From the NCBI GenBank assembly GCA_000934665.2, contig KZ538353.1:1-64000 (forward strand): DNA of 64,000 nucleotides, given 5' to 3'. Under the pieces are notes generated by a model that saw only the letters and a program-made list of their open reading frames with translations, was not told the origin of the DNA and searched no databases. The translations under genes and the position numbers were made by a program. The DNA comes from Catajapyx aquilonaris (Eukaryota). This document shows, piece after piece, positions 1 through 59,065 of the stretch. Position 1 is the first letter of the stretch. Every line of letters starts with the position of its first letter.

Positions 1-1285
1 GCGAGGGGGAATAAATACTGCCGGGTGCGCAAGGAGGGGGCGTTTTCTGGCGGATTCCGGGTCTCTTGTTCATCTGTAGCATTTATTTGCATGTCGTCTT
101 TCGCACAATTTTTTTTTTTTTGCAATTAATTGATGGGAGATTCCACGACAGAGCATGCAAAATAAAATTCAAAGTATGTTCACCATCAATTTTTTTGATC
201 TCAATAAAATTTAGTAGGATAATTTATCGTCCCTAACGATAATAATATGAATCATTTTAAAAATTTAAAAATCTGGTTTTTTCTTCATTTTTTTCATTCA
301 CTTATCGCGTTTGGTGGCGCCGCGCCGTGGCGGAGTGGTTAGCGCCACAGCCTTCTACCTCTAAGGTCCCGAGTTCGATCCCCGGTTAGCGCAGAGGATA
401 CTAATGTGGATGGAGTTTAGATGGGTTCTCTCCGTGTTCGCGTGGATTTTCTCGGGGTCCTCCCGTTTCCTCCCGTAATCAAAATCCATCAAACGCAGAC
501 AATGATTAAAGTATTAAAGGTATTCATTATTAACATACACTTATCACAATGTCTCAATCCTATACACAGAACATTATTCGCACATCAAAAGTATTGGTGT
601 GCCTTAGGGTCGTTTGTCCACGTGTGCGGTTTTACGGGTTTTTTGCCCATTTAATTACAAGCAAGGGGCGCGTGCTCCCGTGCACCCCCCCCCCNCCGTA
701 AAAAAGCTCCCCAGAGGGATAAAAACGGGAAAAAAAGAAGAAGAAAAACTGGGGGAAAACTCGCAAAAGCCCTCTTCTTTTCCGTTTTGCCCCAAATTTG
801 GGGTGGCGAGGAAGGGTTGTGACCTTGAACCGAAAAATTATCGCCTGCGGCGGGCCCTCCGCGGCTCCACCCCTCCCCAGGAGATATTACGTGCACCACT
901 GACAGCGACAAATGTGGACCCGAAGACGCCTCCCCCCCCCCTCAGAAAAAACTTCTGGATCAGGCACTGATTGCACGTGCCCTAATGACCCATAAAAATT
1001 TTATATTTGAAATTTTTAAAATGATTCATATTATTATCGTTATGGACGATAAATTATCCTACTGAATTTTATTGAGATCAAAAAAATTGGGGGTGAACAT
1101 ACTTTGAATTTTATTTTGCATGCTCTGTCGTGGAATCTCCCATCAATTAATTGCAAAAAAAAAAAATTGTGCGAAAGACGACATGCAAATAAATGCTACA
1201 GATGAACAAGAGACCCGGAATCCGCCAGAAAACGCTCCCTCCTTGCGCACCCGGCAGTATTTATTCCCCCTCGCTATATCACGCC
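1..1285. mobile_element. Non-autonomous DNA transposon with long (~270 bp) terminal inverted repeats (MULE/foldback-like); left tip probably just off-window
   Basis: 1-~270 is a near-perfect reverse complement of ~1006-1274 (GCGAGGGGGAATAAATACTGCCGGGTGCGC... versus ...GCGCACCCGGCAGTATTTATTCCCCCTCGC). The right end continues TATATCACGCC to 1285, followed by a T run. There is no transposase inside. The superfamily is inferred from TIR length only. Confidence 0.85.
316..490 (+). mobile_element. tRNA-derived SINE with V-domain-like core, nested in the TIR element
   Basis: Pol III A box TGGCGGAGTGG at 328-338 and B box GAGTTCGATCC at 371-381. 405-484 (TGGAGTTT..GTTCTCTCCGTGTTCGCGTGGATTTTCTCGGGGTCCTCCCGTTTCCTCCC) closely resembles the V-SINE central domain as I recall it. 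The 3' boundary is uncertain. Confidence 0.8.
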
Positions 1286-1544
1286 TTTTTTTTTTTTTTC
1301 TTCTAAGCCTACATCAAGAGCTCTTGCCTACATTAGGTCTAATTTTTCAAGCCGCGATGATCGTACGATTCGTACCTGTTCCCGACAGTACAAGGACATT
1401 ATAGGAACGTATATTTTGGCGGCTGATAGGGTCACTTGAACCGGGATGGCAGCAGATCAAACTTCCCTGAGAAGTTGGAAAATGTGCATTATTTATACAG
1501 TTTTGCCTTGATCCCCCCCGGGGGAGTGTTGCCCGGGTCGTGGC

Positions 1545-2130
1545 CATTGCCTCATCTGCCCCCACCTGCCCCCCTTCCCCCCAATCACCCCAAATAAAAC
1601 ACCTTTTCACATACACCAGACAACGCAACGCACCTCCCACTCCCGCCCGCCTCCCAAGACCGCGACCGTGACCCGTGATCACAGTGCTGTGGATTCCGGA
1701 ATAACTCCAAATAAACAACCGTGGTCACCTGGCAGCGCAAGGATAACCAACACATAAACACATAAGAAAATAAACAGTGACGACAATATTTTTGAACGCG
1801 ATAGTACTATTAACCCCAAAAGTAATGTCGCGACTGTTTATGGGTGATGCCGGCGACCTTTTGGTAATCCTGGGCGCTGCCAGGTTACGGATATGCTTAT
1901 TTGGTGATGTTCCGGAATCCACAACACTCTGCTCACTGGTCGCGGTCCCTTGGCCGCACGGTCAGGGTCTCGTCTTCTCTGCGACTTTTTGTGTATCCGC
2001 CTCCCTGAAGGGGTGCTGCCAGGTAATGGCAGGGAGGGAATGGGGATGGGAGAGGCGTTGTCTTGTGACAGTGAAACGGTGTTTCTATGGGGGCGATGGG
2101 AAGAAAGAGGGGCCATTGAGGCAGGGCAAT
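1545..2130. repeat. Diverged spacerless palindrome centred at 1805/1806
   Basis: Centre ATAGTACTAT at 1801-1810. 1771-1785 pairs with 1826-1840 (13/15), ~1683-1750 pairs with 1861-~1928, and ~1545-1626 pairs with ~2055-2125. The right arm has an extra insertion at ~1955-2035. Confidence 0.85.
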
Positions 2131-2848
2131 TTCATCACAGTTCATCCTGGAAGCAATGTCACCCTACCTATTCCATTTTTTGCAGAATTTGGCACAATTG
2201 TTAAGACAGACATCAGTAGTAGTACCAGGTAGTACGTAGGAATATGTTTAAGGGGTAGAGGTCAATAGGCCAGAAGGAAACAAAATGAAACAAAAAAATG
2301 CACATTTGGCAACATTTTGGTGTATATATTCAGAACTATACATGCTAGGAGTATGGCCAATATGTCACTTCATTCCCAAGATTATGCAGAATCTACCACA
2401 CTTTTATTTTTATTTATTTTATTTATATTTTTATTACCCCATTTGAGGGCAAGCGGCCTTTTAGGGGGACAAGGCCACACTTTTATTGATTTTAGTAGAG
2501 TAAACTACACAGAGAAATGTGGAGGTCATCACATGACCTTTGACCTCTTGAGAATGTCACATGGGAGAAATCTAAGATAAATATCCACGAGTACCTCTAC
2601 TCAATGCCTTTCAGACATAAACGTTTCCCACTTGCAAAACGTTTTAGTTTGGAGACAATAATTCTGAAATGTAACCCTACCCAGCCCGTAACCACTAAAA
2701 TTGATAACAGTGTGTGGTAGGTTTCCAAAAATGTATGGTTTTCATACTCTCCAAAAAATTCTGGCGACAATTAAAATCCAACCATAGTGAACCTGACTAC
2801 TCCTTGGTGCAGGTCAGAGACCCTCCTGACGCAGGTGAAAGGAAAGTT

Positions 2849-2920
2849 CCCCAGGCGAGGATCGAACCTGGGGCCTTTCACTCAGCAAGCCGAGACGTTA
2901 CCATCTCGGCCATCTACACC
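2849..2920 (-). mobile_element. tRNA-derived SINE head fragment
   Basis: On the minus strand: A box TGGCCGAGATGG (2912-2901) and B box GGTTCGATCC (2868-2859). It does not fold into a cloverleaf. Confidence 0.65.
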
Positions 2921-3815
2921 TCCCCAAACTCTTCCATTTCGTTATATGTAAGGTTTTGTTTTCTACTTACTGCATCACGAATCTGGCAAGAAAATCTCCG
3001 CTTCCCCTCAAAAGCCAGAGCCCACTTTTTCAACTGCTTCTAATTCACAAAGTTTGATCACGAATGGTGCCAACAGGCGTTGAGCGAGTCCCCAAGAGAT
3101 GGGAAATGTTGCCAGATGTTACATTTCCATGCGAGATTTCCATGCTCCCTTGCTTTTTAGCTTTCCTGTCTCAGTTGGTGAATACATCGACAGTGGGGAA
3201 TACTACGTAGTACACTTACCTTACTCATTGTAAATGTCACTCATCCACTTGAAGGCCAGTCAAGGTCCACTTTTTGTTAAAAAAGAGTCGCACATCTCGG
3301 AAGATACTTTCACTAGTGTAGAATATGATGGTTTGGTAGTGGTTGTCCAGTAATGATCATAGGTCACTATGGAAGGCCCCGAAAGTGGGATTTACAATGG
3401 AGCCTTATGGACCATCGAAATTTAAATTGGATTATCTCAGTTTCACCTGAAGTGGACCTTGATCGTTTTTCTCCTGAGGTATTTATTTGCTTTGCAATAA
3501 TTTCAGGATGGGAAAAAGTGAGAAGCCAATTGAAGGCAGGCGTTCCAGTGTCATCCGTGCCACAACCGACTCGCCCACTTCACCACCTCCAGTTAAGAGG
3601 ACACGACCCATATTGCTCGGAGGCCAAAAGAATCTCCTCTCCTTGTGGACCCGCAGAGTCAATGCAGAACACCAGCAGAAGCATGTGGACTTCGCAGGCA
3701 GAATCGGCACAGATGGGAACTGTGCCAGACTTTATGCTTCGTTGGAAAAGGAAGATAACTGATGGGATCAATTTGGAACAAAAAAGAAGTTTGGTGACCC
3801 CCATAGGGTAGACAT

Positions 3816-3821
3816 TTTATT
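3816..3821 (-). terminator. Candidate poly(A) signal of SERBP1 (3' UTR ~1.7 kb)
   Basis: AATAAA on the minus strand followed ~30 nt later by a U-rich tract (CTTCTTTTTTGTT). It is the first canonical hexamer I noticed downstream of the stop at 5490. Confidence 0.4.
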
Positions 3822-5489
3822 TCTCGAGCGGCCTTAATTATTAATTTTTTTTTTGGTTTCCTCCCCCTCCATTTTCTCTTCCTTACAAAACATTAACTAC
3901 AGGACTACTAAACAGGAGAGTTTTAAGTCTTGAAGTTTTAACCCTTTGTTTCAGTTTTCAAGGAAGTTGTGACTGCTTGCCAAGCAATTACTACTTTACT
4001 GCCTGTTTGTTACACAACCCTGCTTGGAGAACCATCCACTTACATTATTATGCCATATTGGTCTTAACTACTATTAGCCCGCAAAAAATGTAGGTCTCCT
4101 TGCGCAGCAGAACCAAACCAGACTTTTCACTTTGCAGAAAGGGGGCAGATCAAAGGCTCCGTGAAACTAACACATTATGCCCTGGGTACATTGTACATCA
4201 TGCCAACTCGAAGCATTACATGACACATGGGAGTCCCATGATCATCCTCGGCTGAGTGCAAGGTGGTACCAACCAAGTTACAAATTGTCACCAGCTGATT
4301 TGTGAAGCTCACAGATTTCACGTAGGTGCCCCTTTTCTGACCACAAAAAAATTAGTTATTCCTATTACACATAATTATTCCTCTGCCCAACTTGACAATT
4401 TGCAAAAGGGTGGCAGGATAGTGATGATGGATTAGTCACCCACTAGCAATGTAAACAAAGTCAGTAACAGGCAAAAAGATAAAGGAAGACCCTAACTTTA
4501 TGCCAAGTCTGAATTGCAGTTTGAATATGGACCTGGATTAATTAATCCATCGACTGACTCTACTTACACTACCCTTCAACTAGGACAGAGGAACTCCCTG
4601 CATATAGATACCATCAATAAGTACCTTTCTTGGCAAGAAATCACAACTCCCTTTGTTTGATTCCTGGAAAGTGAGCATAATTTGATGAGAGCCAGAAACA
4701 GGGCATGCCCATCTCCCATCATAATGAATAAAACATAAGCTTCAACTTGCATTGACCTCGGTGTAAAAGTGAAACTGAAAGAACTCAACGGCAGTAAAAA
4801 GACGTCAACATTCGGTTTACTTTTATATCCCACTCATTACTTCAAACATGATCCAGTTAAGGGGGGGTTACGTTGGACACTAGTCCCTGCCATTACATGT
4901 TTTTTAAAAAAAATCTCCCATGATTCTCTTTCTCTGTCCATGTCCTCCAACAGTCAGTCAGTCTCGCACATGACAATAATAATAGAAAAACAAAGGGACT
5001 CAAATGAGGGTAATGGATGATTGTATGTGTATGGGCAGCGAGAGGGTAAAGGACGTGTCAGATAGAGTTGTCAACATGGACTTGACCGGAGACTTGATTA
5101 TGCAGGATGACTAGCCATAGTGTGTCACGGTTACTCAGGATGGGTGGTGAGGAGAAAGGAACATCAGTTTAAGTCTATGTTTTCAAAAACAGAGGGGGGA
5201 CTTTCTTCTCACCCGTCCATTTCCTTCAACCACTCCGATTTCACATGTAAAAAAGAACAGCAAAAAAACAAATGTGAAAAAATTCGTCAAAAGAAGGGTT
5301 TGAAACAACGTGGTTTGGGTACATGTTATGGTGGGATCTTTGCATGGAAAGTAAGGAGGAAAACAAAAAAGAAAATTCCATCTGTCGTTGGGGGATACAG
5401 TCCCTGCAGATGGGCTTCCTTTTTCCCCACCCCCCTCATCTTTTCAAACTTCTCACATGGGAGTAAGTGGGTGGTACCGAGAGATTAAA

Positions 5490-5573
5490 CTATCCCAGTG
5501 ATGGGAAGTCGTTCTCGTCGTCCACACGGGGTGCACTCTGCCTCGGGCCACGGGACTGGAAACCTCCACGAGG
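5490..5573 (-). CDS. SERBP1: SERBP1 last coding exon
   Basis: [34 protein letters not shown] (TAG at 5492-5490). Confidence 0.93.
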   Translation of the reverse strand, partial: PRGGFQSRGPRQSAPRVDDENDFPSLG

Positions 5574-8500
5574 CTGTGGATGAAGATATAGCTCAAGTTA
5601 CAAAGTATCACAATCACCAGTCTAATATGTGTGCCACAATCAAGGGATAGAGGGGCAATTTGATTGGGAGCATTAAAACAATATTATGCCAAACATTGCT
5701 GACCTGTCCTCGTCCTCCACGAGGTCCACCCCTGGGTCCTCCTTCGCCTCGCCCTCGCCCTCCACCACCGCCTCCCATTCCACCTCCCATTCCTCCACCC
5801 ATGCTGTCTCTGTCCCTTCCGCCTCCGCCACCATCCCTTCCACCCATTCCGTCCCTTCCAGGTCCACCTCTCGCTCCTCGTCCCCTTCCACGTGTCCCAC
5901 GCCTTGAATCTGAGAAGGTGATGTCAATGTCCAAGAGCTTCCGCCGGTTGCTGGTCCGTTGGGTGTGATCCGTCTCCATTTCCTGCCGAAGGAAAGACAG
6001 GTAAAGGTTTACCGACGTTGTGTAAAAACAATAAACGTCTCTCATTAGCCTAAAGTCCTCAACAAAAAAAGCCAACCTCCTCCTCTTCCTCCTCCTCTTC
6101 ATTGCCATCTTCCTCTCCCTCTGGCTTGACTTCCTTCTTGAGTGGCACCATTTTCTTCCATTGTGTCAGGTCCTCCCCCTCTCCAGGCTTCCTGATGTTG
6201 AACACAGGCTTTGCTCTGGGCTGCTGCAGGGCGCGCCATTCATCCAGAGTCAGTTCTCGAGGGGCCTCTTCTGCTGGAGCACCAGACGGACTCTCCTCCG
6301 ATGCCTCTCCACCAGTCTCGCCACCAGTAGTTCCAGTTTCCCTGTTTCATGGTAAGTTTCATTTTAAAGGGTTTCGTATGTATTGGCACTGTAGTGGTAG
6401 GCTGTCAAGAGAATGTCTTCTTTATATTATCAACTGTTAACTTTTGAACTTTAATGTTGTAGCTAACCTGGATTGACCTTGAACATGGTACTAACTTGGG
6501 TTCCGTAGTCTCGCCAGGGGTAGTCTCAGCTTCCGGTTTTGCATCCCAGTCGTGCTGCTCCTCAGTAAAGGAGGTCTGGTTGGTTTGAGCACTGTAATGT
6601 AATGTTGGTTTTTAAAATTGTGAAATCTGGCTTCACATCTGCATGCACATAGCAATCTAGTCTGCCATATTACCAAAAAAGTGCATCAAGGTTGCTTTGG
6701 ATGAATTGCAAAAATGTCATTGACCTTACTAAGGATATAAATATAGCTGCAAAATGATACAAGCTTCCTTTCCTTTGGGTTATCATGAATTTCTGGGTTG
6801 GGGGACAAGTTATCTGCAAACATACAAATGGCAACAGAGATAAAGTTCATAGTATGATTTGCAACCAAATAAAGTGACGGGTATGGTCAGGTTGTTAACT
6901 CCTCAACCTTCTCTGATCTCTGTTTCGAACCACACCATGTCCGTGTTGCTGCTGCAATGCAAAAGCTGTTCTGAACTCAAAATGTAGCAAAATAAATGCA
7001 GAATGGCAGCGCCAGGAAGAATATTTTCTGCACATTATCAGTATACTATTTTCCACCCCCAACCCCGTGTCTTCGTATAAGCAGTGAGCCCCATAGCATC
7101 ACTAGGTGTCATGCACTTCTAAAATGCCTGCTAATTGTTATTTTGCAGCGCACATATTTTGAACCTTACACAAAGCACAGGGACATTTACTGCCATAAAC
7201 AAGTAATAATAAAGACATAATAAGGAAAGTAAAATATAGGGATAGTGAAGAAGACATAATGATAAAAATAAAAAAAATCAGACATACTCCCAGTCATCTT
7301 TGTACGAGCCCCAATTATGAGCTCCGGTCCCTTCGCGCTTCTCAATGGCCTTCACACCACTGCAAGAGGGAAGAATATATCAAAGTTGAACACAAGTCTA
7401 GACACAACTTGCTTCTTATGTCTTTGAGATTCAGGTATTAGTTTGTGCAATTCTCTGGCACATGCTTGGATGATTTGTTCAAAATATTAATTTCCACGTG
7501 AGAGTATGTCAAGCCCATTCATAACCAAAGTTGACTGTGCACTAATGAAAATGAAAGAAGGACGCAAAATATAAGCCGAACACAAAAAAAGGTGATGCAA
7601 AGCATATTTTAAGCCATCTTCCTTTGAAACTAGGAGATCAAAGAAGGCTGCCAGTTTTCCCTCATAATAATTAATGTTAGCAATAAAAAACTGATATGAT
7701 TCAACCACCACAATGGTAGATTTGATCACACGTCCTCACCTCTTGTCTGATCCAGAATGCCGGTCGTACTCTCGCTTTCCCCTTGGGTCATATCCACCTC
7801 CACCCCCGCCCCGTCCTCCCCTGCCGCCTCGTCCGCCACGTCCCCTTCCTCCTCCACCCATTCCGCCATCGCCACCACCTGAACCAAACCCACTGCCTCC
7901 CTCTCGGCCAAATCCTCCGCCGGTGCCACCACTGGCTTCCCTTCCAAATCCGCCGCCGCCGCCGCCGCTGCCGCCTCCCTCCCTCCCGAATCCACCTCCT
8001 TCCCTTGCAAATCCGCCTCCACCTCCCTCTCTTCCAAATCCACCTCTACCACCACCACCCCTTCCACCCCGACCTCCACGTCCAAAGCCAAATCCAGGAC
8101 TGCCGCCACCTCCCCCGCCGCCGCCTGTTCCAACAGACTCAAAGTCTGACCGCTGCGATGACTCCCGGTTGGATCCTTCCTCTCCACCTTGAGGGTGGCG
8201 ATCATCCCGGTTACGGCGATTGTTGCGCTCTTCACGGGTCTCATTTGAGAACTTGACGTTGCGTTCTTGTGCAAGCTTTCCTTTGGGCTTCAGGTCTAGA
8301 TGAAGTCACATTCACGAGAAAGGGGTGAAAAAATTTAGCTACTGTATTTTTAAAGCACTCTTACTACATTATAACAATTTCACTGAGATTTCTACAACAT
8401 GATCCTTTTCTGATCTGCTATGAACAATTTTACAGGGGAAATCTGGATATGAACATGTCTCGTGCACCTGTAACATTACTACATGACTAATTTTGTACAT

Positions 8501-10808
8501 TCTACCGCTTGATAATGCAAATCCTAGTTTATATAAGCCAATCCCAAGCAGCACTTCTTAAATCAATGCCTTTGAGGCAGGTCATACTGTATTTGTCGAT
8601 GTTTTCTCCATCCAACCCGATCTACCCTCAACTGGCAAAGTGCCCATAAGCAGATTTATGTTCTTATCTGCAGTCAAGGTTGAACAACACTATCTTCATA
8701 ACACTATCCCATCCAACCCTACAGCTCACAATCTGCACATCAACTTTGGATTATAAAGTTCATCGCAAACTATAGGGAATTTCAGTTTTCATGGCACTTT
8801 GCCATGCTTTCCTGCAGAATGTTTACTCACAAACAACTGGGACCATTTTTAGCATGTTATTACGTGCTCATCTCAAACCCCATGACTTTCAATTGTCTTG
8901 ACTTCCGATTTTAGCTCTTTAAATATTTTTGTGTTACAATATTACACTGTTGCACTCTTTCAATGTTAACTATGGAAAGCTTTTGTCCCCAACATTATAA
9001 AATCACAGACAATATGGTTCCCTGAGTAGTTGGGAGACCCCCAATTAATTCTGACTGACCAAACTGGCTTAGGTTTTCTGTGGTTTTCCTTGAAAACCTC
9101 TGGGTAAATAATGGGCCAGCTTAAACAAAAAGGGAGAGAAAAAACCTTGTTGCTTCCTCTCCACATCCCTAATCATCTTCACAGGAAAAAGTAATGAATT
9201 TGCTGCTGTGACCCTGCAATTATGTGCTGCAAACGGCATATCCTACAATTATTAACCGTTTGAGCTTAACACCTATGCTGCCACTGCAAAGTCATAATAG
9301 GAACAAAGGCGACGCAAGTCCTCCAACTTTACAAAATTGGATACACTGTGCACTTCATAGATTACCAATAACCTTGACCCAGCCTGCACCTGCACACCAA
9401 CCACCACAAATCTCAAGTGTATGGTGATTTTTGCTAGCCAACCCAAAGGTTTCACTCATTCTCGACTGCTTATACTCCCAGTCATTGACATGTAAATAGG
9501 AGCAAGAACAGATATCACTTCTCATGGGCACCTCGCCAGTTTTTCTACCTTCGTATCCCTCGCCCCGAGAACGATCACCTTATCAGATTTTCTAGTGACA
9601 CTGCCTGTGGACATAATACAGACTTACTGTACATCTTACACAATGGCCAAACAAAGAAAACGACAAAGGTCCAACACACAATTGGGTTCAGGTGTTGCGG
9701 TTGGCATTATCTTTACACAGATCATTCGTGAATCTGGCCTGTTTTTCAAATATGCCAATTTAAATCACGCACAGAATGCTGCATAATTTTGAATGCAGTT
9801 CCCCTTCGGGTGAATCATAAGATCTGTGAAGGAGTGCAAAAATTACAAAGTACAATAACTGCCTGCTCTCCCTACTTCAAATTTTAGCTCTGCAAATCAG
9901 TATGTTCTCACTATACATGACGAGAAAATGATTTTCCACAAGAATTTTAAGAGCCAGCAGCCTTGTTGATTTTGATAACAGTACTGCATTGCATGCCATC
10001 AACTGCAAAGCTTCCGACACCAGTCATTAAACAGGCATTGAATAAACACCCTCTAGTTGTCAATGCACCTGCACATGGGCAGTGTCGTGATCTCAGCCGT
10101 ATCAGTTTCTAGCCTCCATGTCTCACAACTCCCTCTGTTCTGCCCAAGGGGTAAGTCACTCAATGACGGGCTTAGACCAGACTTCATGAGTGACTAACCC
10201 CTTAGGTTCTGCCAGTCACCTAACACCACTCGACCAGTGTCCATTGTCAATTTTGCCAACTGACCATGTGCTGCGGTCACGCTCGAGACGCTTAGTGCGA
10301 CTGCATGACGAGCCCGGCAAGTGCAATAGCACTTCCAACGTGCAGCAGCAACCCCTTCCCTCCCACTATAGTGCTGCCCCAAAAAAAGCCTTCTTCCCAT
10401 TTGCTATTTATATCCTCCCCAAAAATGATGCTTACCATTGGTCTTACCGGTGGTGGCTCCCTCCTTCTTGGAGTCCTCCTTGATGTTCTGGGTCTCCTTA
10501 ATCCCCTTGGCCTTCCCTCCTGCCTGCTTGTCCTCCCTCTGCTTGTCCGGACTCTGCTGCTGGACAGGGGCCGCCTTCTTGTTGTGCTGCTTATCCTCTC
10601 CTCCTCCACCTCCGTCTTTGTTGCCCTTCCCACCAGCGACCTGCTGTTGCTGTCCGTGAGTGGCGTCCCTGTTCTCCTTCTCGGCCTGCTTCTTCTTCTT
10701 GGCCCCCTTCGCCTGCTCGTGCTCCTTCAGCTTCTCCACCGGATCGCCCTCGTCGTCGTAGAACAGGGCGTACCGGTTCTTCACTCCTATCCCGTACGAG
10801 TTCTCCAT
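5490..10808 (-). CDS. SERBP1: SERBP1/HABP4-family (vig-like, PAI-1 mRNA-binding) protein, 574 aa; exons 10808-10436, 8295-7740, 7359-7288, 6591-6496, 6341-6077, 5982-5704, 5573-5490
   Basis: All introns are GT-AG with compatible phases; total 1725 nt. Family motifs: N-terminal [68 protein letters not shown] boxes, and C-terminal [14 protein letters not shown]. Confidence 0.95.
5704..5982 (-). CDS. SERBP1: SERBP1 coding exon 6 (RGG box)
   Basis: [42 protein letters not shown]...GGRGQ |GTCAGC. Confidence 0.92.
6077..6341 (-). CDS. SERBP1: SERBP1 coding exon 5
   Basis: Contains [29 protein letters not shown] and an acidic run; donor |GTTGGC. Confidence 0.92.
6496..6591 (-). CDS. SERBP1: SERBP1 coding exon 4
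   Basis: [44 protein letters not shown]; phase 2-2. Confidence 0.85.
7288..7359 (-). CDS. SERBP1: SERBP1 coding exon 3
   Basis: [38 protein letters not shown]. Confidence 0.93.
7740..8295 (-). CDS. SERBP1: SERBP1 coding exon 2 (Gly/RGG-rich region and [10 protein letters not shown] motif)
   Basis: Acceptor TTCATCTAG|; (D)[29 protein letters not shown]...[13 protein letters not shown]; donor |GTGAGG. Confidence 0.93.
9010..9180 (+). mobile_element. Degenerate SINE fragment in SERBP1 intron 1
   Basis: CTGACTGA..GGTTTTCTGTGGTTTTCC..GGGTAAATAATGGG..GCTTCCTCTCC resembles the core of common insect tRNA-SINEs as I recall it. Confidence 0.45.
9549..9578 (-). CDS. SERBP1: Candidate 30-nt SERBP1 cassette microexon ([10 protein letters not shown])
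   Basis: AG|GTGATCGTTCTCGGGGCGAGGGATACGAAG|GTAGAA. Phase 1-1 and frame-preserving between exons 1 and 2, but the polypyrimidine tract is weak. Confidence 0.4.
10436..10808 (-). CDS. SERBP1: SERBP1 coding exon 1
   Basis: ATG at 10808; [23 protein letters not shown]...GKTN; donor G|GTAAGC, phase 1. Confidence 0.93.
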
Positions 10809-10939
10809 CGCTGGATGGATGGAGCCGAGGGGGACACCCGGACTGGTCGGATGGCGATGGATACGGATGGTCTGAGGGGGGGCCTCCTCCTCCGTGTGTG
10901 TGATGTGCTCTCCCGCCGCACACCGTCTCGCTCTGCTTC

Positions 10940-12085
10940 CAAGATGGCGCTCGCCTCGCCTTCCCCCCACCTCCCTCTTGCGCACCCTCCCCACCGTCCC
11001 CCCTGCCCTCTGCAACCCACAAAAGATCGCAGCTCAAGGACAGCAACGGCGTAGCACAGCAGCTGCCCCAAAATCACACATTCAATCACATTCACTCGAG
11101 GAAACCAATTAAAACATTACAGAACAACCCGCCAGTAGCACATGCCCGCACTGTAATTAACAGCAGTAATTAAGCACCTGGCATTGCTCAGCACAATGAC
11201 TAATGACACACCACTAATAGCTGGTAACAGTTTAGACAAGCAGCTACATTGCACATAGCTAGTGGCTGCACGTGCAACGATCTGATGGCTGGACAATGGT
11301 CAATGGATATTTCCAGCATTTTTTTTATGGAGGGGATGGCCACTTTTGCCTACAATTGTTTTGGAGGGTTGGTCCGTTTTTGGGGGGTCATGTCCAGGGA
11401 GGACAGCAGGTTTTTTTTTTTGGTGTTGATACCGGGTGGTATATTGCGGTTGGTTCGATGAGCTGCCGCTCAATCGCGCCACATGTGCTCGGTTTTATTG
11501 ATGGAGCTCACGATGGAGCTCGAGGAAACGGCCAGGTATATTACAACGACGGGTAGATATTATAAGCGAAAACTCGCATTGCACAGAGTGGGCACTGCTG
11601 GGCAGTAAAACAATGTAGCATGGATTTTTTTAAAAAAAAAAAAAATCAGGTACGGCACCACTTTTGCGCATGTAGCTTTATTTCGCCTGCAACAGCGACT
11701 AGAACCTCTGGGGTACCTATTTTGCCTGGAATGTTCCGCGCAGTACATCACCCGACATCACCAGTACATTATAATTATTTGAATTTCCCGGTGAGTTCGG
11801 CAATGGACGCATGCGCATTGGGTTGCGCGGGTCGGCCATGATTCCCGTTATGACGTCACAGTGTTATTGGCGGGAAGGCACCCTTGTGACCCGCATCCTG
11901 CTCGTTAAATGCCAAATGCATTTAAACCCTAACCGAGTCTAAACGGCACTTAAAATCGGGTGATAATTTTGGAGGCGCATATTAACGGTTAATGGCGGCT
12001 GAGAGAGGAGTTAAACTGTGAAACGGCGTGGTCTGCCGGGCGCGGGAAAGACATCCCCGGGAACAATCGCAGTAGAGGAAGGGCA
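10940..12085. promoter_or_regulatory. Divergent promoter region between SERBP1 and ZNF367
   Basis: The ATGs diverge at 10808(-) and 12086(+). Motifs: YY1-like CAAGATGGCG 10940-10949, TTTGAA 11778-11783, NRF1/Ewg-like CGCATGCGCA 11808-11817, CRE TGACGTCA 11851-11858, E2F TTGGCGGGAA 11867-11876 and GCGCGGGAAA 12040-12049, Myb TAACGG 11983-11988. Confidence 0.7.
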
Positions 12086-12389
12086 ATGGAGGAGAAGCAG
12101 GGCGAGTCGGGTCTGGCGACGTCCGGGGGCCCAGCCAGCCCAGGATACGCCCCGGGTTGGGAGTGGTCGGACAGCAGCTCGTGCTGCGGATCCCCAGAGT
12201 CCATGGGGCAAGGGCAAGGGCGGAGGAGCGGCGGGGGCGGAGGAGGGAAGAGGGGCCGGCCCAGGGCGGACCTCATCACGGCCCTCATCAAGGAAGGGGC
12301 CACCTCGCCCAGCTCCATCAAGTGCCACTACTGCAACCGGGTCTTCCCAAGGGAGAAGAGCCTCCAGGCGCATCTCAGGACGCATACCG
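12086..12389 (+). CDS. ZNF367: ZNF367 coding exon 1
   Basis: ATG at 12086; first C2H2 finger; donor ACCG|GTCAGT. Confidence 0.92.
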
Positions 12390-13673
12390 GTCAGTACCAG
12401 ACGGGGCTTTGACAGATAGGGGCACAACAGCCAGTTGGCATCATGTTTTATTTTACTTAATTGCAAACTCATGTCAACCCAGTATGGGCGTTGTATTCCA
12501 CCAGTTAGATATTTAAATAAATTCGCGAATATTCACAAATATTTAAAGTAATTTCACATACTTTTATGTTAACACAATAAGACCATTGTGTACAAAGTGT
12601 TCCATGGCACCATGTACTTAATGCCACTACTGAGGGCCACCATGTGTGATGGCAAGGACTGTTGGACTGGAACCACAAGTTAGTAACTCAAATGGGCAAA
12701 GCACTGCTATTAAACACTGAATAATAATGCGACATTGGTTTTAAATTTGCGATGCAGCTGAGGATGAAAGTTCATGTCATGTGGCATCTATCCAAAACAT
12801 TTAACACATTTGTCAATTCAATGCCAAAACTAAATATTTCAGCCATTGTACATGAATTTTTTGTTACTTATTTGAAAATTAATAAGCTCATTGCATTTGT
12901 TTACAGGTGAGAGACCCTACCAGTGTGACTATCCTGGATGTACCAAGCGCTTCACGCAGAGTGGCCAGCTGAAGACCCACCAGAGGCTGCACACTGGGGA
13001 AAAACCCTTTGTGTGCTCTTATCCTGGATGCCCCAAGCGGTTTACTCATGCTAACAGGCATTGCCCTGACCACCCTTCCTCTTCTCTGCAACGAAGTGAC
13101 GACTTTGTCCTTCGTACTGTGGCTGGTAACAATGCGGAGGGATCAGAGGATGTCCTGAGCTGGTTGGAGAGGTACAAGAGGCAACGCGAGGAGCGCACTC
13201 CACTTAAACAGGTGACTGGGAAGCGAATTGACACTTCCAAGCCACCAGGCGCACCCTTGAAGCCTCCCAGGAACCGGAAGCTGGAGCAAGAGAACTGGCG
13301 AGTCGACAGGGATGAGGAGAAGCTACAACCAAAGAAGAGGTGGCTTAGGGAGGCATCAAAGGATTGGCAGCTTTGGGTTGGACAGGATGAACCAATGGAA
13401 GGCGTCACTCCCCTGAACCAAGAGTGGGGCGGGATTCGCCCTTTGGAGGACGATGCTGGTCCCAGGTGTGAGGTGGAGATGATGCCTGATTTAGACACCA
13501 ACGATGCCAATGCAATGCGTCCATCAGTGCTGCGTTTAACAAGCCAGGTTGAGGAGAGTCAGAAGTGGCTTGGAGCTATGGCACTGATCGAGCTGGCAGA
13601 AGCCCCTGATTCATTTGTGAAGGACCAGCCGCTTGACCTGTCCGATGCAGCTTCTCCCTTCCTCAGATGGTAG
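12086..13673 (+). CDS. ZNF367: Zinc finger protein 367 orthologue, 356 aa; exons 12086-12389 and 12907-13673
   Basis: [97 protein letters not shown] and C-terminal GAMALIELA match ZNF367. Phase-1 GT-AG intron at 12390-12906. Confidence 0.95.
12907..13673 (+). CDS. ZNF367: ZNF367 coding exon 2
   Basis: TTTGTTTACAG|GTGAGAGACCC; fingers 2-3; TAG at 13671-13673. Confidence 0.94.
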
Positions 13674-48079: not shown

Positions 48080-51000
48080 TAATAACAAGATTGCTGGTTG
48101 CAGTTTGCATCTCGATAACTTACAGTGACTTTCTTGTCAGGCCCAACATTTCCAGCATATTAGCAGATTCCTTTCACCAACGTCATTCAGGCTGTCAATT
48201 TACATATTGCACCTATACCTAATAATCAGGTTACCCTTCCGAATCACGCGTGCACAATGGTGTAAACGACACCCCTTGAAATTACGACCATTTCCGACGT
48301 GTGCCAGGCCACGAAGGTCGGGTCAGGTCCCTTAGTTGGACACTTTGGCGGCCAGGAAATCTGTGCAGACGTGTGGCAATATGCGGGAGGGATAAGGGAG
48401 AGAGGAGTGAGTGGATAACGAGATGAGAGGACAGGTTGCAGAAGACTTTTCTCCCCAACGAGGAGTAGGGGGGGGGGNNNNNNNNNNNNNNNNNNNNNNN
48501 NGATGAGGAGAGGGGGTTGTTGAAATTGCGCGTAGATAGGGGCGTGGACGTGGGGCAATCCGAATCGATATGACAAAGTGGCGTCCTAATCCGGGCTGAT
48601 CTTGGGAGGCGACGGCGGGGAAGGCCCGGGGTAATTGGTTCAGATGGTGTCGACAGGGGAGGACTCATCAATAGCTCATCAGCTCCCGCGGCCAACCTGC
48701 ACCCCCCTAAACTACACTCCCACCCACCCTCATTCCCCCCTACCCACCCCGCCACCTCCTATAGCTGCTTATCCAGGCGAGGCCGCCCAAACGACCGCCG
48801 CCGCATACCGCCTGGATTCAGAAAGGATTTGGAGGCAGTGCTCAAGTGCACTTGGGGGGAAAAAGGCGGGGGTGGGGGGGGGGGGGGAAGGAAAAGTATT
48901 GTAAACTTGAAGGAGCTTGTTATTCGCCAAATTCCCCCGGACGGTGCAAAAGAGACGGGGTGGGAAGGGCACATTGGGCGCAAAGCCAATTGTCCGCAGC
49001 CATGAGCTGTCGGATTTACGGCTGCCTTTGATGGCCGGGGGATGTTGCCACCAGAAATGCTTATGATTTGGCATCAGCGCCACTTGGGGGGCGCCCGAAG
49101 ACAACTTTGACATTCTCAGACCCTGTCGGATCAACCTACTGTGAGAGGGGGGAGATGTCGAATCTGTCTCTACATATCCATGCAAAACGGCCGATTACGC
49201 GACCTGTTTTGCGTCGAGTGTGCCAAAAAGCACCCACATTTTAGGAATCCGCAGGAAACACGTTCGAACGATTGTTTCACCCCTCGTCGCCGGCCGCCTA
49301 AACGCATCGCAAATTGGTGTTTTGTAAATCAGTTTCCGAAAATATTTCACCCCATGCTGGCCGTCATGTCTCAATTACTGAGCGGGCTTGTAATCGATAG
49401 GATTCGACATGTAGCAATTGGCACGGCATAACTTGGGCTGGTTTTCCAGCGGCCGTATACTGTATATATAGCCTGGAGTGGACCGTGTATATTGAAGGGG
49501 ATTTGCGGGGAGGGATTGCATTTTTCTTGTGTTGGGGGGAAGGGGAAGCTGGGCGCATTTTACCTTTGGCGTTAGTGGTGGGGAAACCGACTGAGCAGCT
49601 GTCAGCTACCATCATTCATCTCTATCCAAGTCTCGTTAGCCGCTGACCGGCAGCGGCAAGAAGGGGAGGAGAAAAGGGTGGCTGGCAAGTTGGCGGGGGA
49701 ATTAGCATGCGGTGGAGGCCAGGTTTTTCGTGGTGGTGGGTGCTACTGCTGCTGCCATGGCCTCCAGAATCTCCCCAGCTGTTGGTTTGGCAGGCTGGCT
49801 TGGTTTGGTTCTGTTCCTTTGGCAGCCCCCTCTCTTCATGCTATGTCATTTTTCTCACAACACCCAATCACTTTCGCTCGCCCGCGCCTTTTCATTACAG
49901 CTTCCATTTACACTCGGATCCGAGAAGAAAACAATTCGCAGACCTGCAATGGTACGTGACCATTTAAGGGGAGAGCGTATACTTCCAAGAGACTATTTGG
50001 GGGGGAAGTAAACGCATTGTTAGCGGTGTTACCCAGGGGAGGCGACAAAAATGTGGCAACTGCGGTGAGAGTGGGCAAGGATGGCTTGGACGATAGCGAG
50101 CCGGGCAGTTGTTGTGGCGGAGGATGGCCCCGGCGATCATGATCACGTTTGCGGCTAAAGGGGATGTAAATTGGGAATTAATGTGGGCCGGTTGCGCGAC
50201 AGGAGGAGTATATTGGCGCCCATGGCCGCCTGGCCACTCACCACCAGCGGTGCTAACCCAGATTGAACTTTCACACGCCATTGCGTATACATATTTGGAG
50301 GCGCATTAACTTGATTCCTCCTGTTGCATTTGCCATGAACAAGTGGAAGAGAGGATAATAGTCGGGTTGGGGGATACGGGCAGTTGGGCGGATGCGGCAT
50401 TCCAGTTAACCAGCATGTGACGTGGGCGCTTGTCAACAAAGCCGTTCCCGCACTTTACTTGTAGACTGCCTGCCCGACTCTGATTTGCATGGGAAATAAA
50501 TTAGCCGGTCCCCCGCAGGAGTTTGCGACCGGGGGAAAACGGCGGGAAATGAGCCCCATCTACGAGGGGGTGTGTTGGCAATAGCCGTTCAAATGACGAT
50601 TTTTGCAAGTTTTCCATGTCTTTTATTTGCATGCTGAGCAGCCTGTTTGCAAAATGAGGTGTCTCGCGGGCTTTTATCAGAATTGATCTGACGCTGGAAG
50701 TGGACTCTTCAAGCCCGGGCGTGATGATGTAAGGGCTGATGTCAAAGTGCGAGTGTTGCTGTTGTGGGGGCTTGGTGCAAAAACTGGCCATGTTTCAGGC
50801 GAAAGTATAAGGTGTGGTTATTTTATACTCTTTACATGTACACACGGGACACCCGCAAGAATAGTCTCTATTCCCTTCTTACACTTGCAAATCAGTAAAA
50901 ATTTTAAAACCATTTAATGTCGCATTTACGAGGTATCTTCCTATATAGGCCTACTGAAGATGTCCTGAGGGAATTAATCAGTGAATCCCACCCTCTCGAT

Positions 51001-54000: not shown

Positions 54001-57000
54001 GGGGGTTTGTGAGTTTAATCCAATGACGGATGCCTCTGGATAAGTTTATAGGGTAACATGATGTCAGCCTATTACGGTATTAGACCTGGGCTTTTTTCAA
54101 GGGGTGTAAGGGCCGTAAAGAAAATTAAAGCATTGTTGTAGTTCTCGGTTTTATTCAAGCTGGGTTGATGTTTTTTGGCTTCATGACGATCCGGACAAAT
54201 TATTATGGCGCGAATATAGTAGTAGTTTGCGCCACGGTTGAGGTTGCCGGTGGCTGGGCAATGGGGTGAAAACATGGGGATGGAGTTTTTTTCCCGTGAA
54301 GGTTTATTGTGGCTTTTATGTCGGGGTGTCGGGCGGGGAGACACTGCTTAATAAGTCTGTAAGAGACATGTCAAAATGGGGGTAGGGTGCTGGAGGACAT
54401 CTGCCGCGCTTTTGCAACCGGCCCGCCTTGGGAAGAATGGCAAGTCCCTCCCGGCGTCCCTCGCACTCGGCTACCTCTTAATACAGGTGTCAGAGGTCAA
54501 TGCGCAATTTATTTTGGCATCTTCCGCATGGACGGATCCCTTTGACGCCCCTGAAGCGACCCTCTTGCTGGCAGACCATTGAGCTGCTAATACGGTGGCG
54601 GTCAATTGGGAACTATCCGAGCATCAGGAGCGCNNNNNNNNNGGGGGGGGGGGGGGGGGGACATTTTTTTTATTGACTTATTTTGCACCGCGGACTAGTT
54701 TGCTAGGCGGTGGACTTGTTCATCATTCCGTTACGGATGCGGTGCCCGGTAGTTCATACTCCCGATGGAGATAGTCTTGAGACATTGTTTGGAAAAGCGT
54801 AGTAGTGTAGGGCTTGGCTTCCTCCTTGATGGGATTCGCGGTGTATAAGCGAGGGGAGAGTCAAGTTTGGTCGGAATCCGAGGCAAGTGGGTTGCCAAGT
54901 AACCTTCTAATTGGGATCAATCCATGGGAGAAGCAAAGTTCGATTTGCTTCCCTTTTCAGGCTGTATTGATGTGTGGTCTTCCTTTGCCGAGTGGTCGGA
55001 TGCAGTTTAGATAGAGAGTTGAGGTTGAGCCTGTAGCAGGGGCGCAATTGGGAATCAGGTTGGTTAGGTTTTCCCTGTGGCTAATAAACATGCTCCGGGG
55101 GTTAGTTCTATGTTTCCGCAAAGAGATAATTGGATTCCTAAGCTTGGCTGGAAATATTGTTGGGGCTTTTAACAAAGAACTTGTACATAATTACGTTGGT
55201 GCAGGAGTGACTTTGCCGGCCTCCTTTATTCTCTTTATCATCCCTGGTGGTGCCTACAAAGTTAACTTGGCAGACCTCGGTAGCCCCATAGGAAAATATG
55301 CAGCCGGAATGAGTCTAGTGCCCCCCTTCCTCGGGATGTAGACTCATTTTGGAACCACCATTTTTGGGTGTAAAAAAATACTGGGGGATTCATCATGGTT
55401 TGCATGTTTACGGCAACATTGACTGGAAAGCTCGAAGTTGCAGATGGTGCTCTAAATGTGCGTATATAGTCACTCTTGTGTCAAGCAGGAAGAAGTGACG
55501 CGCGATTTGTATGGGACACACAGGTCTGGCAGCCTCGAGTATGTTAAAATTTTATAAACCACATTGTAACTTTTATCGCAAGTGGTAAATAATTCTCCAC
55601 AGCTCTGATAGTTGTAAAGGGCGGCGGAAAACCTCTGTGACCACGCAGCTTCACTCGAGAGTCAAGTAAGCGTTGGGTGCGCCTCATCCTGGCCATTCGC
55701 TAACCTATGCACCTCTCTTGATTCGCGCGTTGCTGTCATTCAGGGGCCAACTCCTGTCCCATACCCGTATTCCGTACAGGACGCACAGTCGCCTGATAAA
55801 ATTCAATTGACACGCGGCTCTGAACTGAAATGGTAGTGCGGAGGAAAATATAATTTATGGATGACATAATTAGAACAATTTTACCATATCCACTTGTGCT
55901 GATTTAGCAGCAGCTGCTGAATTAGGCCTGCTGCGTACAATTCGTTTGGGGTCGACTATGACGAGTTGTGGCCAAAAATATTTCAATACCCGGAGTTGTA
56001 AAAATTCATAAGATTCCCGGCCAAGAGTAAGTGTAGGTCAAATGGTAAAATGCGCAGGTGTCAGCACCCGGAATAATCATAAAAAATCTGAGCATGGTGT
56101 GAAGGATTGAGGACGGGAGCAAATCCCCGGCAGACGAGGTGTTTGCTGGAGCCTCCCCCATCCACCCATCCCACTCCCCATCCCCACCCAGCGTGCAGGG
56201 GAACAGATGGGTTGTTCTGGCTGACAGCGCTATTTGCATGAAACGGCAAACATGGGCTTGCCGTAATTAGGCCCGGTTGACAAGGTGACAGAGGCGCGTC
56301 CCTCAGCCCACTCGGGGCTCTCCTCCTGACACCAAGTTTATCCCAAGACTTGACTTTTCGCAGCTTGTTAATTTGCACCGCTTGGTTATGGAGTTTAAGG
56401 GGACCAACCCTGCTGCTGATATTCCTCCCCAGTTAATAAGCTGCTGGGGCGAAATGGGGTGGGGGAGATCTCATTGCACACACCCATCTTATCTGGATGC
56501 ACCTAATCTCTTCGTTAATAAGAGATTGTATGGTGTAATCTAGGTGTGAACCACACGTCTTTGTTTAACGACGGCAGGGAAACATTTGTTGCCCCAGGCC
56601 TTTGGAATGCCTCTTTGCTGCTTTTGCCGTCACCAGACTTGACAACAGCATTAGCCCCTATGAACCGCGAGTTAACCGGAACTCGGCGATGAGGCTTGTT
56701 ATGCTTCATGGCTATAGCTCGCGTATACCGTACTTCGAGTCCCGTATACCAGCCATTCTCGGTTGGATATTATGGGGAAACCTGTAAGGTGAGCCATTAA
56801 TTCACTTACCAACTCTTTGAATGGCGCTCTCATTGAACAAGCCTGTTTACTTTATATTATTCATATATACTTACTTACAATTAATATTGTTTCCTAATGC
56901 TCTGCAATGTGATCAGCACCATATTCAAGGGCCAGATTATGTCGCGAAAACTAATTTGTAAAAACAATTTTCACGTATGGTCGGGGAGACTTGTTAAAAA

Positions 57001-58766: not shown

Positions 58767-59065
58767 NNNNNNNNNNNNNNNNNNNNNNNNNNNNNNNNNN
58801 NNNNNNNNNNNNNNNNNNNNNNNNNNNNNNNNNNNNNNNNNNNNNNNNNNNNNNNNNNNNNNNNNNNNNNNNNNNNNNNNNNNNNNNNNNNNNNNNNNNN
58901 NNNNNNNNNNNNNNNNNNNNNNNNNNNNNNNNNNNNNNNNNNNNNNNNNNNNNNNNNNNNNNNNNNNNNNNNNNNNNNNNNNNNNNNNNNNNNNNNNNNN
59001 NNNNNNNNNNNNNNNNNNNNNNNNNNNNNNNNNNNNNNNNNNNNNNNNNNNNNNNNNNNNNNNNN
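58767..59065. other. Assembly gap (299 N); smaller gaps at 48478-48501 and 54634-54642
   Basis: N runs, each adjacent to a G homopolymer. Confidence 0.99.

Follow-up and report, generated by a model that had tools for sequence, protein, structure and literature searches.

Non-paralogous genes that stay adjacent and divergent across distant metazoans have been described as conserved ancient microsyntenic pairs (CAMPs), and in the accessible part of Irimia et al. 2012 (PMC3514665) the 5′-5′ class of these pairs is reported as enriched, with short spacers and a retention linked to co-regulation. The same part of that paper cites Adachi and Lieber 2002 for bidirectional promoters, in which the transcription start sites (TSSs) lie less than 1 kb apart. 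For HSPE1-HSPD1, a 5′-5′ CAMP, co-expression and a shared promoter are documented, as far as the accessible text goes. Here we describe a locus of Catajapyx aquilonaris in the first 64,000 positions (1-64,000, forward strand) of contig KZ538353.1, hereafter the window, where a SERBP1/HABP4-like gene on the minus strand and a ZNF367 orthologue on the plus strand lie head to head. Like the CAMPs described in that part of Irimia et al. 2012 (PMC3514665), the two genes are not paralogues and keep a divergent, neighboring position with a short spacer in widely separated metazoans; unlike in HSPE1-HSPD1, co-regulation is here only putative.

Between the two start codons lies a stretch of 1277 bp (10809-12085), and the initial annotation of this stretch, which put them about 1.28 kb apart, had the coordinates right. 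We consider it likely that SERBP1/HABP4-ZNF367 is an ancestral bilaterian head-to-head pair, for whose retention we favor a small breakpoint target together with overlapping proximal control, and the pairing is probably more than 500 million years old. We found no paper on SERBP1/HABP4-ZNF367 synteny or on a bidirectional promoter of the two genes (supplements, including the lists of Irimia et al. 2012, were not covered), and the pair may already stand in unpublished or supplementary lists.

Identity of the two genes

The coding parts of the pair, together with the transcribed 5′ part of the SERBP1-like gene, are as follows.

5490..5573, minus strand: SERBP1 last coding exon and stop codon (tblastn and cDNA-like contigs)
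5704..5982, minus strand: SERBP1 coding exon 6 (tblastn and cDNA-like contigs)
6077..6341, minus strand: SERBP1 coding exon 5, with the C-terminal part of the HABP4_PAI-RBP1 domain (LTLDEW...; Pfam PF04774)
6496..6591, minus strand: SERBP1 coding exon 4 (tblastn and cDNA-like contigs, joint cut +1)
7288..7359, minus strand: SERBP1 coding exon 3 (tblastn and cDNA-like contigs)
7740..8295, minus strand: SERBP1 coding exon 2, a long RGG/GGF-rich stretch (tblastn and cDNA-like contigs)
10436..10808, minus strand: SERBP1 coding exon 1, with the IHABP4_N domain (Pfam PF16174; tblastn from residue 1; joint 8295/10436)
10809..10976, minus strand: SERBP1 5′ untranslated part (coverage by cDNA-like contigs, with ends at 10932 and, loose, at 10976)
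12086..12389, plus strand: ZNF367 coding exon 1, with the RGRPRA motif and the first C2H2 finger (Pfam zf-C2H2)
12907..13673, plus strand: ZNF367 coding exon 2 and stop codon, with fingers 2-3, WLERY..REERTP and the C-terminal block

The SERBP1/HABP4-like gene was modeled on the minus strand from 10808 down to 5490, with its start codon at 10808-10806 and its stop codon at 5492-5490. When tblastn was run with five insect SERBP1-like proteins, seven collinear coding exons were located, and a search of the nearby exon boundaries gave a single canonical GT-AG open model of 574 amino acids. Five of its six introns are confirmed by spliced cDNA-like contigs from one public run, with joints at 5573/5704, 6340/6495 (cut +1), 6591/7288, 7359/7740 and 8295/10436 that all read CT..AC on the plus strand, that is, GT..AG on the minus strand. 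The 3′ untranslated region runs on below 5000.

The protein carries both domains of its family, IHABP4_N on exon 1 (PF16174, E 6.1e-15, 56.5 bits against a cut-off of 39.1) and HABP4_PAI-RBP1 on exon 5 (PF04774, E 9.8e-8, 33.2 bits against a cut-off of 21.8), and HNWG and one further block of the SERBP1/HABP4 family were located in exons 2-3. All five insect proteins are collinear with it from the first residue to the last, the C-terminal DDxxDFPSLG included. These domains are common to the SERBP1/HABP4/Vig2/Stm1 ribosome-associated factors, and exon 5 resembles the human SERBP1 chains of ribosome structures in the PDB (E 1.2e-9) as well as a zebrafish ribosome-bound relative; ribosome association is accordingly only a prediction, drawn from this likeness. 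The product is longer than the insect relatives found (574 against 385-474 amino acids) because the glycine/arginine-rich part in exon 2 is expanded. Indeed, the repeat at 7740-8295 is much enlarged, and the whole protein is 27% glycine.

On the other side of the spacer, the ZNF367-like gene encodes 356 amino acids in two coding exons on the plus strand (start codon at 12086, stop codon at 13671-13673) that are separated by a GT..AG intron at 12390-12906. A protein search with exon 2 gave 938 of 1133 candidates with E<=0.001, and among the 120 matches listed, proteins named zinc finger protein 367 come from cnidarians (sea anemones), hemichordates (acorn worms), echinoderms (sea urchins), molluscs, ticks, insects, fishes, birds and primates. 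When the window protein is aligned with 22 relatives that range from cnidarians to a primate (23 sequences in all), the finger signature shows 38 invariant columns. A quick maximum-likelihood tree of 61 rows places the window ZNF367 inside the insect clade, with a Shimodaira-Hasegawa-like approximate likelihood ratio test (SH-aLRT) support of 96. None of the cDNA-like contigs of the public run falls on the ZNF367 exons, and the run is uninformative about ZNF367 expression.

C2H2 fingers match many unrelated proteins, and automatic names are mixed among the matches listed ('ZXDB-like', 'zinc finger protein 600-like'), so one of the two genes might be a look-alike, some other C2H2 or RGG protein, which would void any comparison with human. 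We find this barely credible. The ZNF367 blocks that lie outside the fingers, namely RGRPRA in exon 1 and WL.RY..RE.RTP and the C-terminal KW.GA.AL.ELA in exon 2, are all present and align from cnidarians to primates, while the SERBP1-like gene has the two family domains, the end-to-end collinearity with insect proteins and the matches to ribosome-bound relatives in human and zebrafish. The orthology on which the initial annotation relied is upheld for both genes, by family blocks and tree placement for ZNF367 and by domains and collinearity for SERBP1.

The pair in other animals

Human ZNF367 has been placed at 9:96,385,941-96,418,370, HABP4 at 9:96,450,169-96,491,336 and CDC14B from 96,490,241 (table of PMC8251932), with lnc-HABP4-8 at 96,418,885-96,419,702 (Table S4 of PMC8251932). 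In the accessible part of PMC13445208, ZNF367 and HABP4 are the nearest protein-coding genes to an intergenic site at 96,436,312, and in mouse the gene order is Hsd17b3, Slc35d2, Zfp367, Gm47513, Habp4, Cdc14b (table of PMC8621608). The adjacency of the two genes is thus confirmed in human and mouse from published coordinates and gene order, and the same two families are immediate protein-coding neighbors at human 9q22.32, in mouse and in the window. The vertebrate partner, however, is HABP4, one of two paralogues, whereas the insect gene is the undivided SERBP1/HABP4. The mammalian spacer also differs, being about 31.8 kb in human by the published coordinates and holding long non-coding RNA or predicted genes (lnc-HABP4-8, Gm47513), against 1.28 kb in the window. 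We take human ZNF367 to be on the minus strand and HABP4 on the plus strand, an orientation that the texts giving the coordinates do not confirm; lnc-HABP4-8 borders ZNF367 at its high-coordinate end, in agreement with a ZNF367 transcribed from the minus strand.

Metagenome contigs were scanned with the ZNF367 alignment, by which 193 stretches were matched, 130 were confirmed and 80 were kept, and SERBP1 was sought in all 80 loci in three ways: with tblastn, with motif regular expressions and with a family hidden Markov model built from 138 of 185 family proteins (a set including 150 library representatives). The three methods agree on a divergent SERBP1-ZNF367 pair in six of the 80 loci, where SERBP1 exon 1 (M..Y.I.V.N[RK][FY]..F.D...DP) is found a short way upstream of ZNF367 exon 1 and in the opposite sense. 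The spacers between the start codons measure 2303 bp in L001, 670 bp in L038, 515 bp in L050, 950 bp in L052, 395 bp in L055 and 433 bp in L058, and with the window the 5′-5′ orientation is found in all seven invertebrate loci. In the ZNF367 tree, L001, L052 and L038 fall in the insect clade (SH-aLRT 96), L038 beside the termite Zootermopsis, and L050 is sister to the bivalve Mactra with a support of 99. L055 and L058 group together and are unplaced; for exon 1 of L058 the best named match is the annelid Capitella (57% identity), and a further protein search to place this locus returned 16 matches and no close relative. Equal contig sizes give a further hint in two insects, since the ZNF367-like and SERBP1-like proteins of a termite are both recorded on a contig of 468,875 bp and those of a cricket on one of 22,690,853 bp.

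The ZNF367 gene structure varies among these contigs. The window and the six pair-bearing loci all have an intron in the RTHTG|ERPY linker, and the anthozoan genes (9575-10471 in L018 and L020, 2151-3062 in L023) give one unbroken match with no intron at that place. The first ZNF367 intron is about 8.6 kb in the termite-like L038 (1422-10001) against 517 bp in the window.

Because independent contigs from other animals repeat the same layout, the head-to-head arrangement in the window is more than chance. The pair was picked after having been seen, and a single coincidence between human and insect could be a selected accident; several lineages, moreover, are without the pair. Re-association by chance or convergence, independently in arthropods, molluscs and vertebrates, is nevertheless very improbable in our judgment, given that the six further contigs had no part in the choice of the finding and have the same orientation and a short spacer, that ordered and oriented motifs are common to the spacers (see below), and that with roughly 10^4 genes per genome a specific divergent neighbor would have had to arise three times.

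Several observations weigh against an ancestral bilaterian pair. Where at least 2.3 kb was available upstream of the ZNF367 exon-1 match (10 loci), four loci have the pair (L001, L050, L052 and L058) and six are without SERBP1: the near-identical anthozoan L018 and L020 (9.5 kb upstream covered), L024, which is copepod-like (9.7 kb), L054 (5.4 kb, likewise copepod-like), the unplaced arthropod-like L049 (9.8 kb) and the annelid-like L066 (5.2 kb). Among the 16 loci with 1.0-2.3 kb upstream, only two carry the pair (L038 and L055); the remaining loci of the 80 are too short or cDNA-like. In the copepod-like L024 the place upstream of ZNF367 is held on the same strand by an NSF-like AAA ATPase (2769-5314, plus strand). 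The contigs were placed by means of a short protein and a quick tree search, and the deuterostome evidence consists of human and mouse, both from the literature, with the human strands presumed. The pair is clearly not universal, although absence was scored within 5-10 kb, and a longer spacer of the mammalian kind would be compatible with such misses.

Upstream neighbors of two of these loci were also recorded. The NSF-like ATPase of L024 shows the domains CDC48_N, CDC48_2, AAA and NSF lid, and in the anthozoan L018 ZNF367 is preceded, on its own strand, by an open frame of 846 amino acids that has no Pfam family (166-2703, plus strand).

The initial annotation had held that HABP4 is the immediate, divergent neighbor of ZNF367 in human and that both adjacency and orientation were kept since the protostome-deuterostome split. 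Its first statement is borne out for adjacency by the published coordinates, the divergence being presumed. The second is largely supported: adjacency is found in insects, in the bivalve-like L050, in human and in mouse, and orientation in the seven invertebrate loci. Scored by lineage, the contigs give a mixed picture: three insect-like, one bivalve-like and two unplaced contigs have the pair, and within the 5-10 kb covered the copepod-like and anthozoan ones, an annelid-like one and a further arthropod-like one do not.

The spacer and its candidate control elements

The spacer of the window was compared with those of the six pair-bearing contigs. Its main features are listed here; the names YY1, E2F and CRE are our assignments, made from consensus sequences.

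10809..12085, no strand: divergent spacer, 1277 bp, GC 0.51, CpG observed/expected 0.85
10940..10948, plus strand: YY1-like (GCCAT) element CAAGATGGC, 132 bp from the SERBP1 start codon
11851..11858, no strand: palindromic CRE-type TGACGTCA, in three of the seven spacers (0 of 3000 shuffles reach three of seven)
11868..11875, plus strand: E2F-type TGGCGGGA (TTGGCGGGAAG), 218 bp upstream of the ZNF367 start codon, on the ZNF367 sense strand
11968..11975, plus strand: shared element TTTGGAGG, 118 bp upstream of the ZNF367 start codon
12042..12049, minus strand: second match to the E2F consensus, GCGGGAAA, which is TTTCCCGC on the other strand, 44 bp upstream of the ZNF367 start codon

No open reading frame (ORF) of the spacer has a Pfam family. 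Words common to the seven spacers exceed what shuffling gives: twelve 8-mers occur in at least four of the seven, where 200 shuffles gave 1.88 on average and 8 at most, and three 9-mers are as widely shared, where shuffling gave 0.09 on average. The E2F-type TGGCGGGA is found in six of the seven, always on the ZNF367 sense strand and 59-346 bp upstream of the ZNF367 start codon, and TTTGGAGG in five, in four of which it lies 37-119 bp upstream of that codon. At the other end, the YY1-like CAA[GT]ATGGC occurs in six of the seven spacers in a single orientation, 60-132 bp from the SERBP1 start codon, and was absent from the 600 bp upstream of ZNF367 at 19 of the 19 SERBP1-less loci tested. TTTSSCGC is present in five of the seven spacers (a count equaled in 2 of 3000 shuffles), GGCGGGAA in four (0 of 3000) and CACGTG in four (12 of 3000), while CHR, DRE, ETS, SP1, CCAAT, TCT and Motif 1 show no enrichment in the seven spacers.

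Two of the cDNA-like contigs have loose ends within the spacer. One departs from the genome exactly at 10976, beside a minus-strand AG acceptor (10976-10978), and a 30-mer of its loose end, taken from a continuation of about 255 letters, was not found in the window; this continuation may represent a non-coding exon of SERBP1 further upstream, in a gap or beyond the window, or else the contig may be chimeric. The other, of low depth (2.8), covers 11340-11647 and leaves the genome at 11647, and its continuation was not found in the window either. Since the end at 11647 abuts an A-run and has no canonical splice site, this contig is probably an assembly artefact, with a spacer transcript as the alternative.

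The invertebrate spacers appear compact enough for a bidirectional promoter region, with putative control motifs whose order is conserved from insects to a bivalve. In five of the seven invertebrate loci the start codons lie 395-950 bp apart, which resembles the bidirectional class, and in L050, L055 and L058 the distances of 395-515 bp would put the TSSs less than 1 kb apart, barring upstream non-coding exons. The window differs from that class in that its start codons are 1277 bp apart, with the SERBP1 5′ end mapped by cDNA-like contigs to 10932-10976 (at least 10976), and in that its conserved motifs are partitioned, one set per gene.

Published tables (PMC5729532 and PMC9090780) count human ZNF367 as a p53-DREAM-E2F/CHR and RB-E2F target, and the E2F-type site upstream of ZNF367 in the window would fit this listing. 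True co-regulation of SERBP1 and ZNF367 is possible but unproven. The initial annotation had gone further in suggesting a shared promoter that couples a ribosome-dormancy/mRNA-binding factor to a proliferation transcription factor, and this the data do not establish. The motifs are split between the two genes; the anthozoan loci without SERBP1 carry GGCGGGAAA 56-59 bp upstream of the ZNF367 start codon, and the E2F-type site is therefore a feature of ZNF367 and not evidence of sharing; the human gap is about 31.8 kb; and the text of PMC9090780 mentions neither HABP4 nor SERBP1. The shuffle counts for single motifs must also be discounted for the 17 known motifs that were tried.

The same observations can be read as passive retention, in which an ancestral pair without any functional link has kept independent promoters and a spacer of 0.4-2 kb that breakpoints rarely hit. 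Each gene has its own proximal conserved element, the YY1-like one by SERBP1 and the E2F-type one by ZNF367; the latter persists in anthozoans without SERBP1, the pair is missing from copepod-like, annelid-like and other contigs, the human spacer is long, and HABP4 and SERBP1 are absent from the E2F target text just mentioned. Against this stands the fact that the mammalian pair is still adjacent after its spacer became a large target. Adjacency and orientation have moreover been kept in insects, a bivalve and mammals (the mammalian strands being presumed), a pattern linked to co-regulation in the accessible part of Irimia et al. 2012 (PMC3514665). We hold passive retention to be a possible explanation, to be entertained tentatively.

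At the opposite extreme, the whole spacer could be a single ancestral module, an E2F-driven, cell-cycle-gated promoter interlocked with a YY1-like housekeeping promoter, which already in the bilaterian ancestor would have tied expression of the proliferation-linked ZNF367 to that of SERBP1/HABP4, a ribosome-hibernation factor. We think this unlikely; if it were true, coupling within the module, rather than small target size, would explain why the pair survived in insects, molluscs and mammals.

Surroundings of the pair and its retention

No extended synteny with the human 9q22 neighbors CDC14B and SLC35D2 was found among the window ORFs of at least 62 amino acids outside the pair. The only one of these ORFs with a Pfam family lies at 3478-3759 (plus strand) and matches the final ~90 positions of Mat89Bb (PF10221, E 8.3e-12), which we take to be the INTS13/asunder family; we read it as the probable terminal exon of a gene that converges on SERBP1. 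A cDNA-like contig of 3420 nt at the SERBP1 3′ end extends below 5000 toward this ORF, and tblastn of the Mat89Bb/INTS13-like exon against the 80 ZNF367 loci gave no match. In the ~50 kb 3′ of ZNF367 (13700-64000), no ORF of at least 62 amino acids has a Pfam family, the plus-strand GC skew is steadily positive, and N gaps occur at 31189, 44229, 48478-48501, 53086, 54634-54642 and 58767-59065.

According to the explanation that we prefer, the head-to-head position of the undivided invertebrate SERBP1/HABP4 gene and ZNF367 would predate the divergence of insects, molluscs and vertebrates, and the window would represent the insect state of this ancestral pair. The invertebrate spacer would act as a compact divergent promoter region of fixed order, with the YY1-like GCCAT element by SERBP1 and the E2F-type site and TTTGGAGG by ZNF367. 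Two causes could then have acted together: at 0.4-2.3 kb the spacer would offer a very small breakpoint target, and a break inside it would presumably cut at least one of the genes off from its proximal control elements. What the sequences show directly is the gene arrangement, the orthology of both genes, the return of the pair in distantly related animals and the common motifs; both the function of the motifs and a regulatory overlap that, beyond the small target size, would hold the pair together are what we infer from sequence comparison. In mammals the spacer would have grown to about 32 kb with no protein-coding gene inserted. The pair would thus have survived in mammals, insects and at least one bivalve, with loss or stretching in several lineages.

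Hundreds of conserved microsyntenic pairs are known, and the present result is modest in that respect, as many such pairs have been described, a prior listing of this one is possible and its functional coupling is unproven. The pair appears to fit the known class of conserved 5′-5′ microsyntenic pairs, to which it would add an E2F-type site upstream of ZNF367 from anthozoans to insects. Because this site is present over that range, E2F control of ZNF367 is suggested to be old. The pair joins a ribosome-dormancy factor to ZNF367, an E2F/DREAM target of which little is understood, and the conservation of the spacer at the level of motifs, from insects to a bivalve, gives concrete elements to mutate. 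Deeply conserved divergent pairs such as this one are rare markers of regulatory constraint on gene order.

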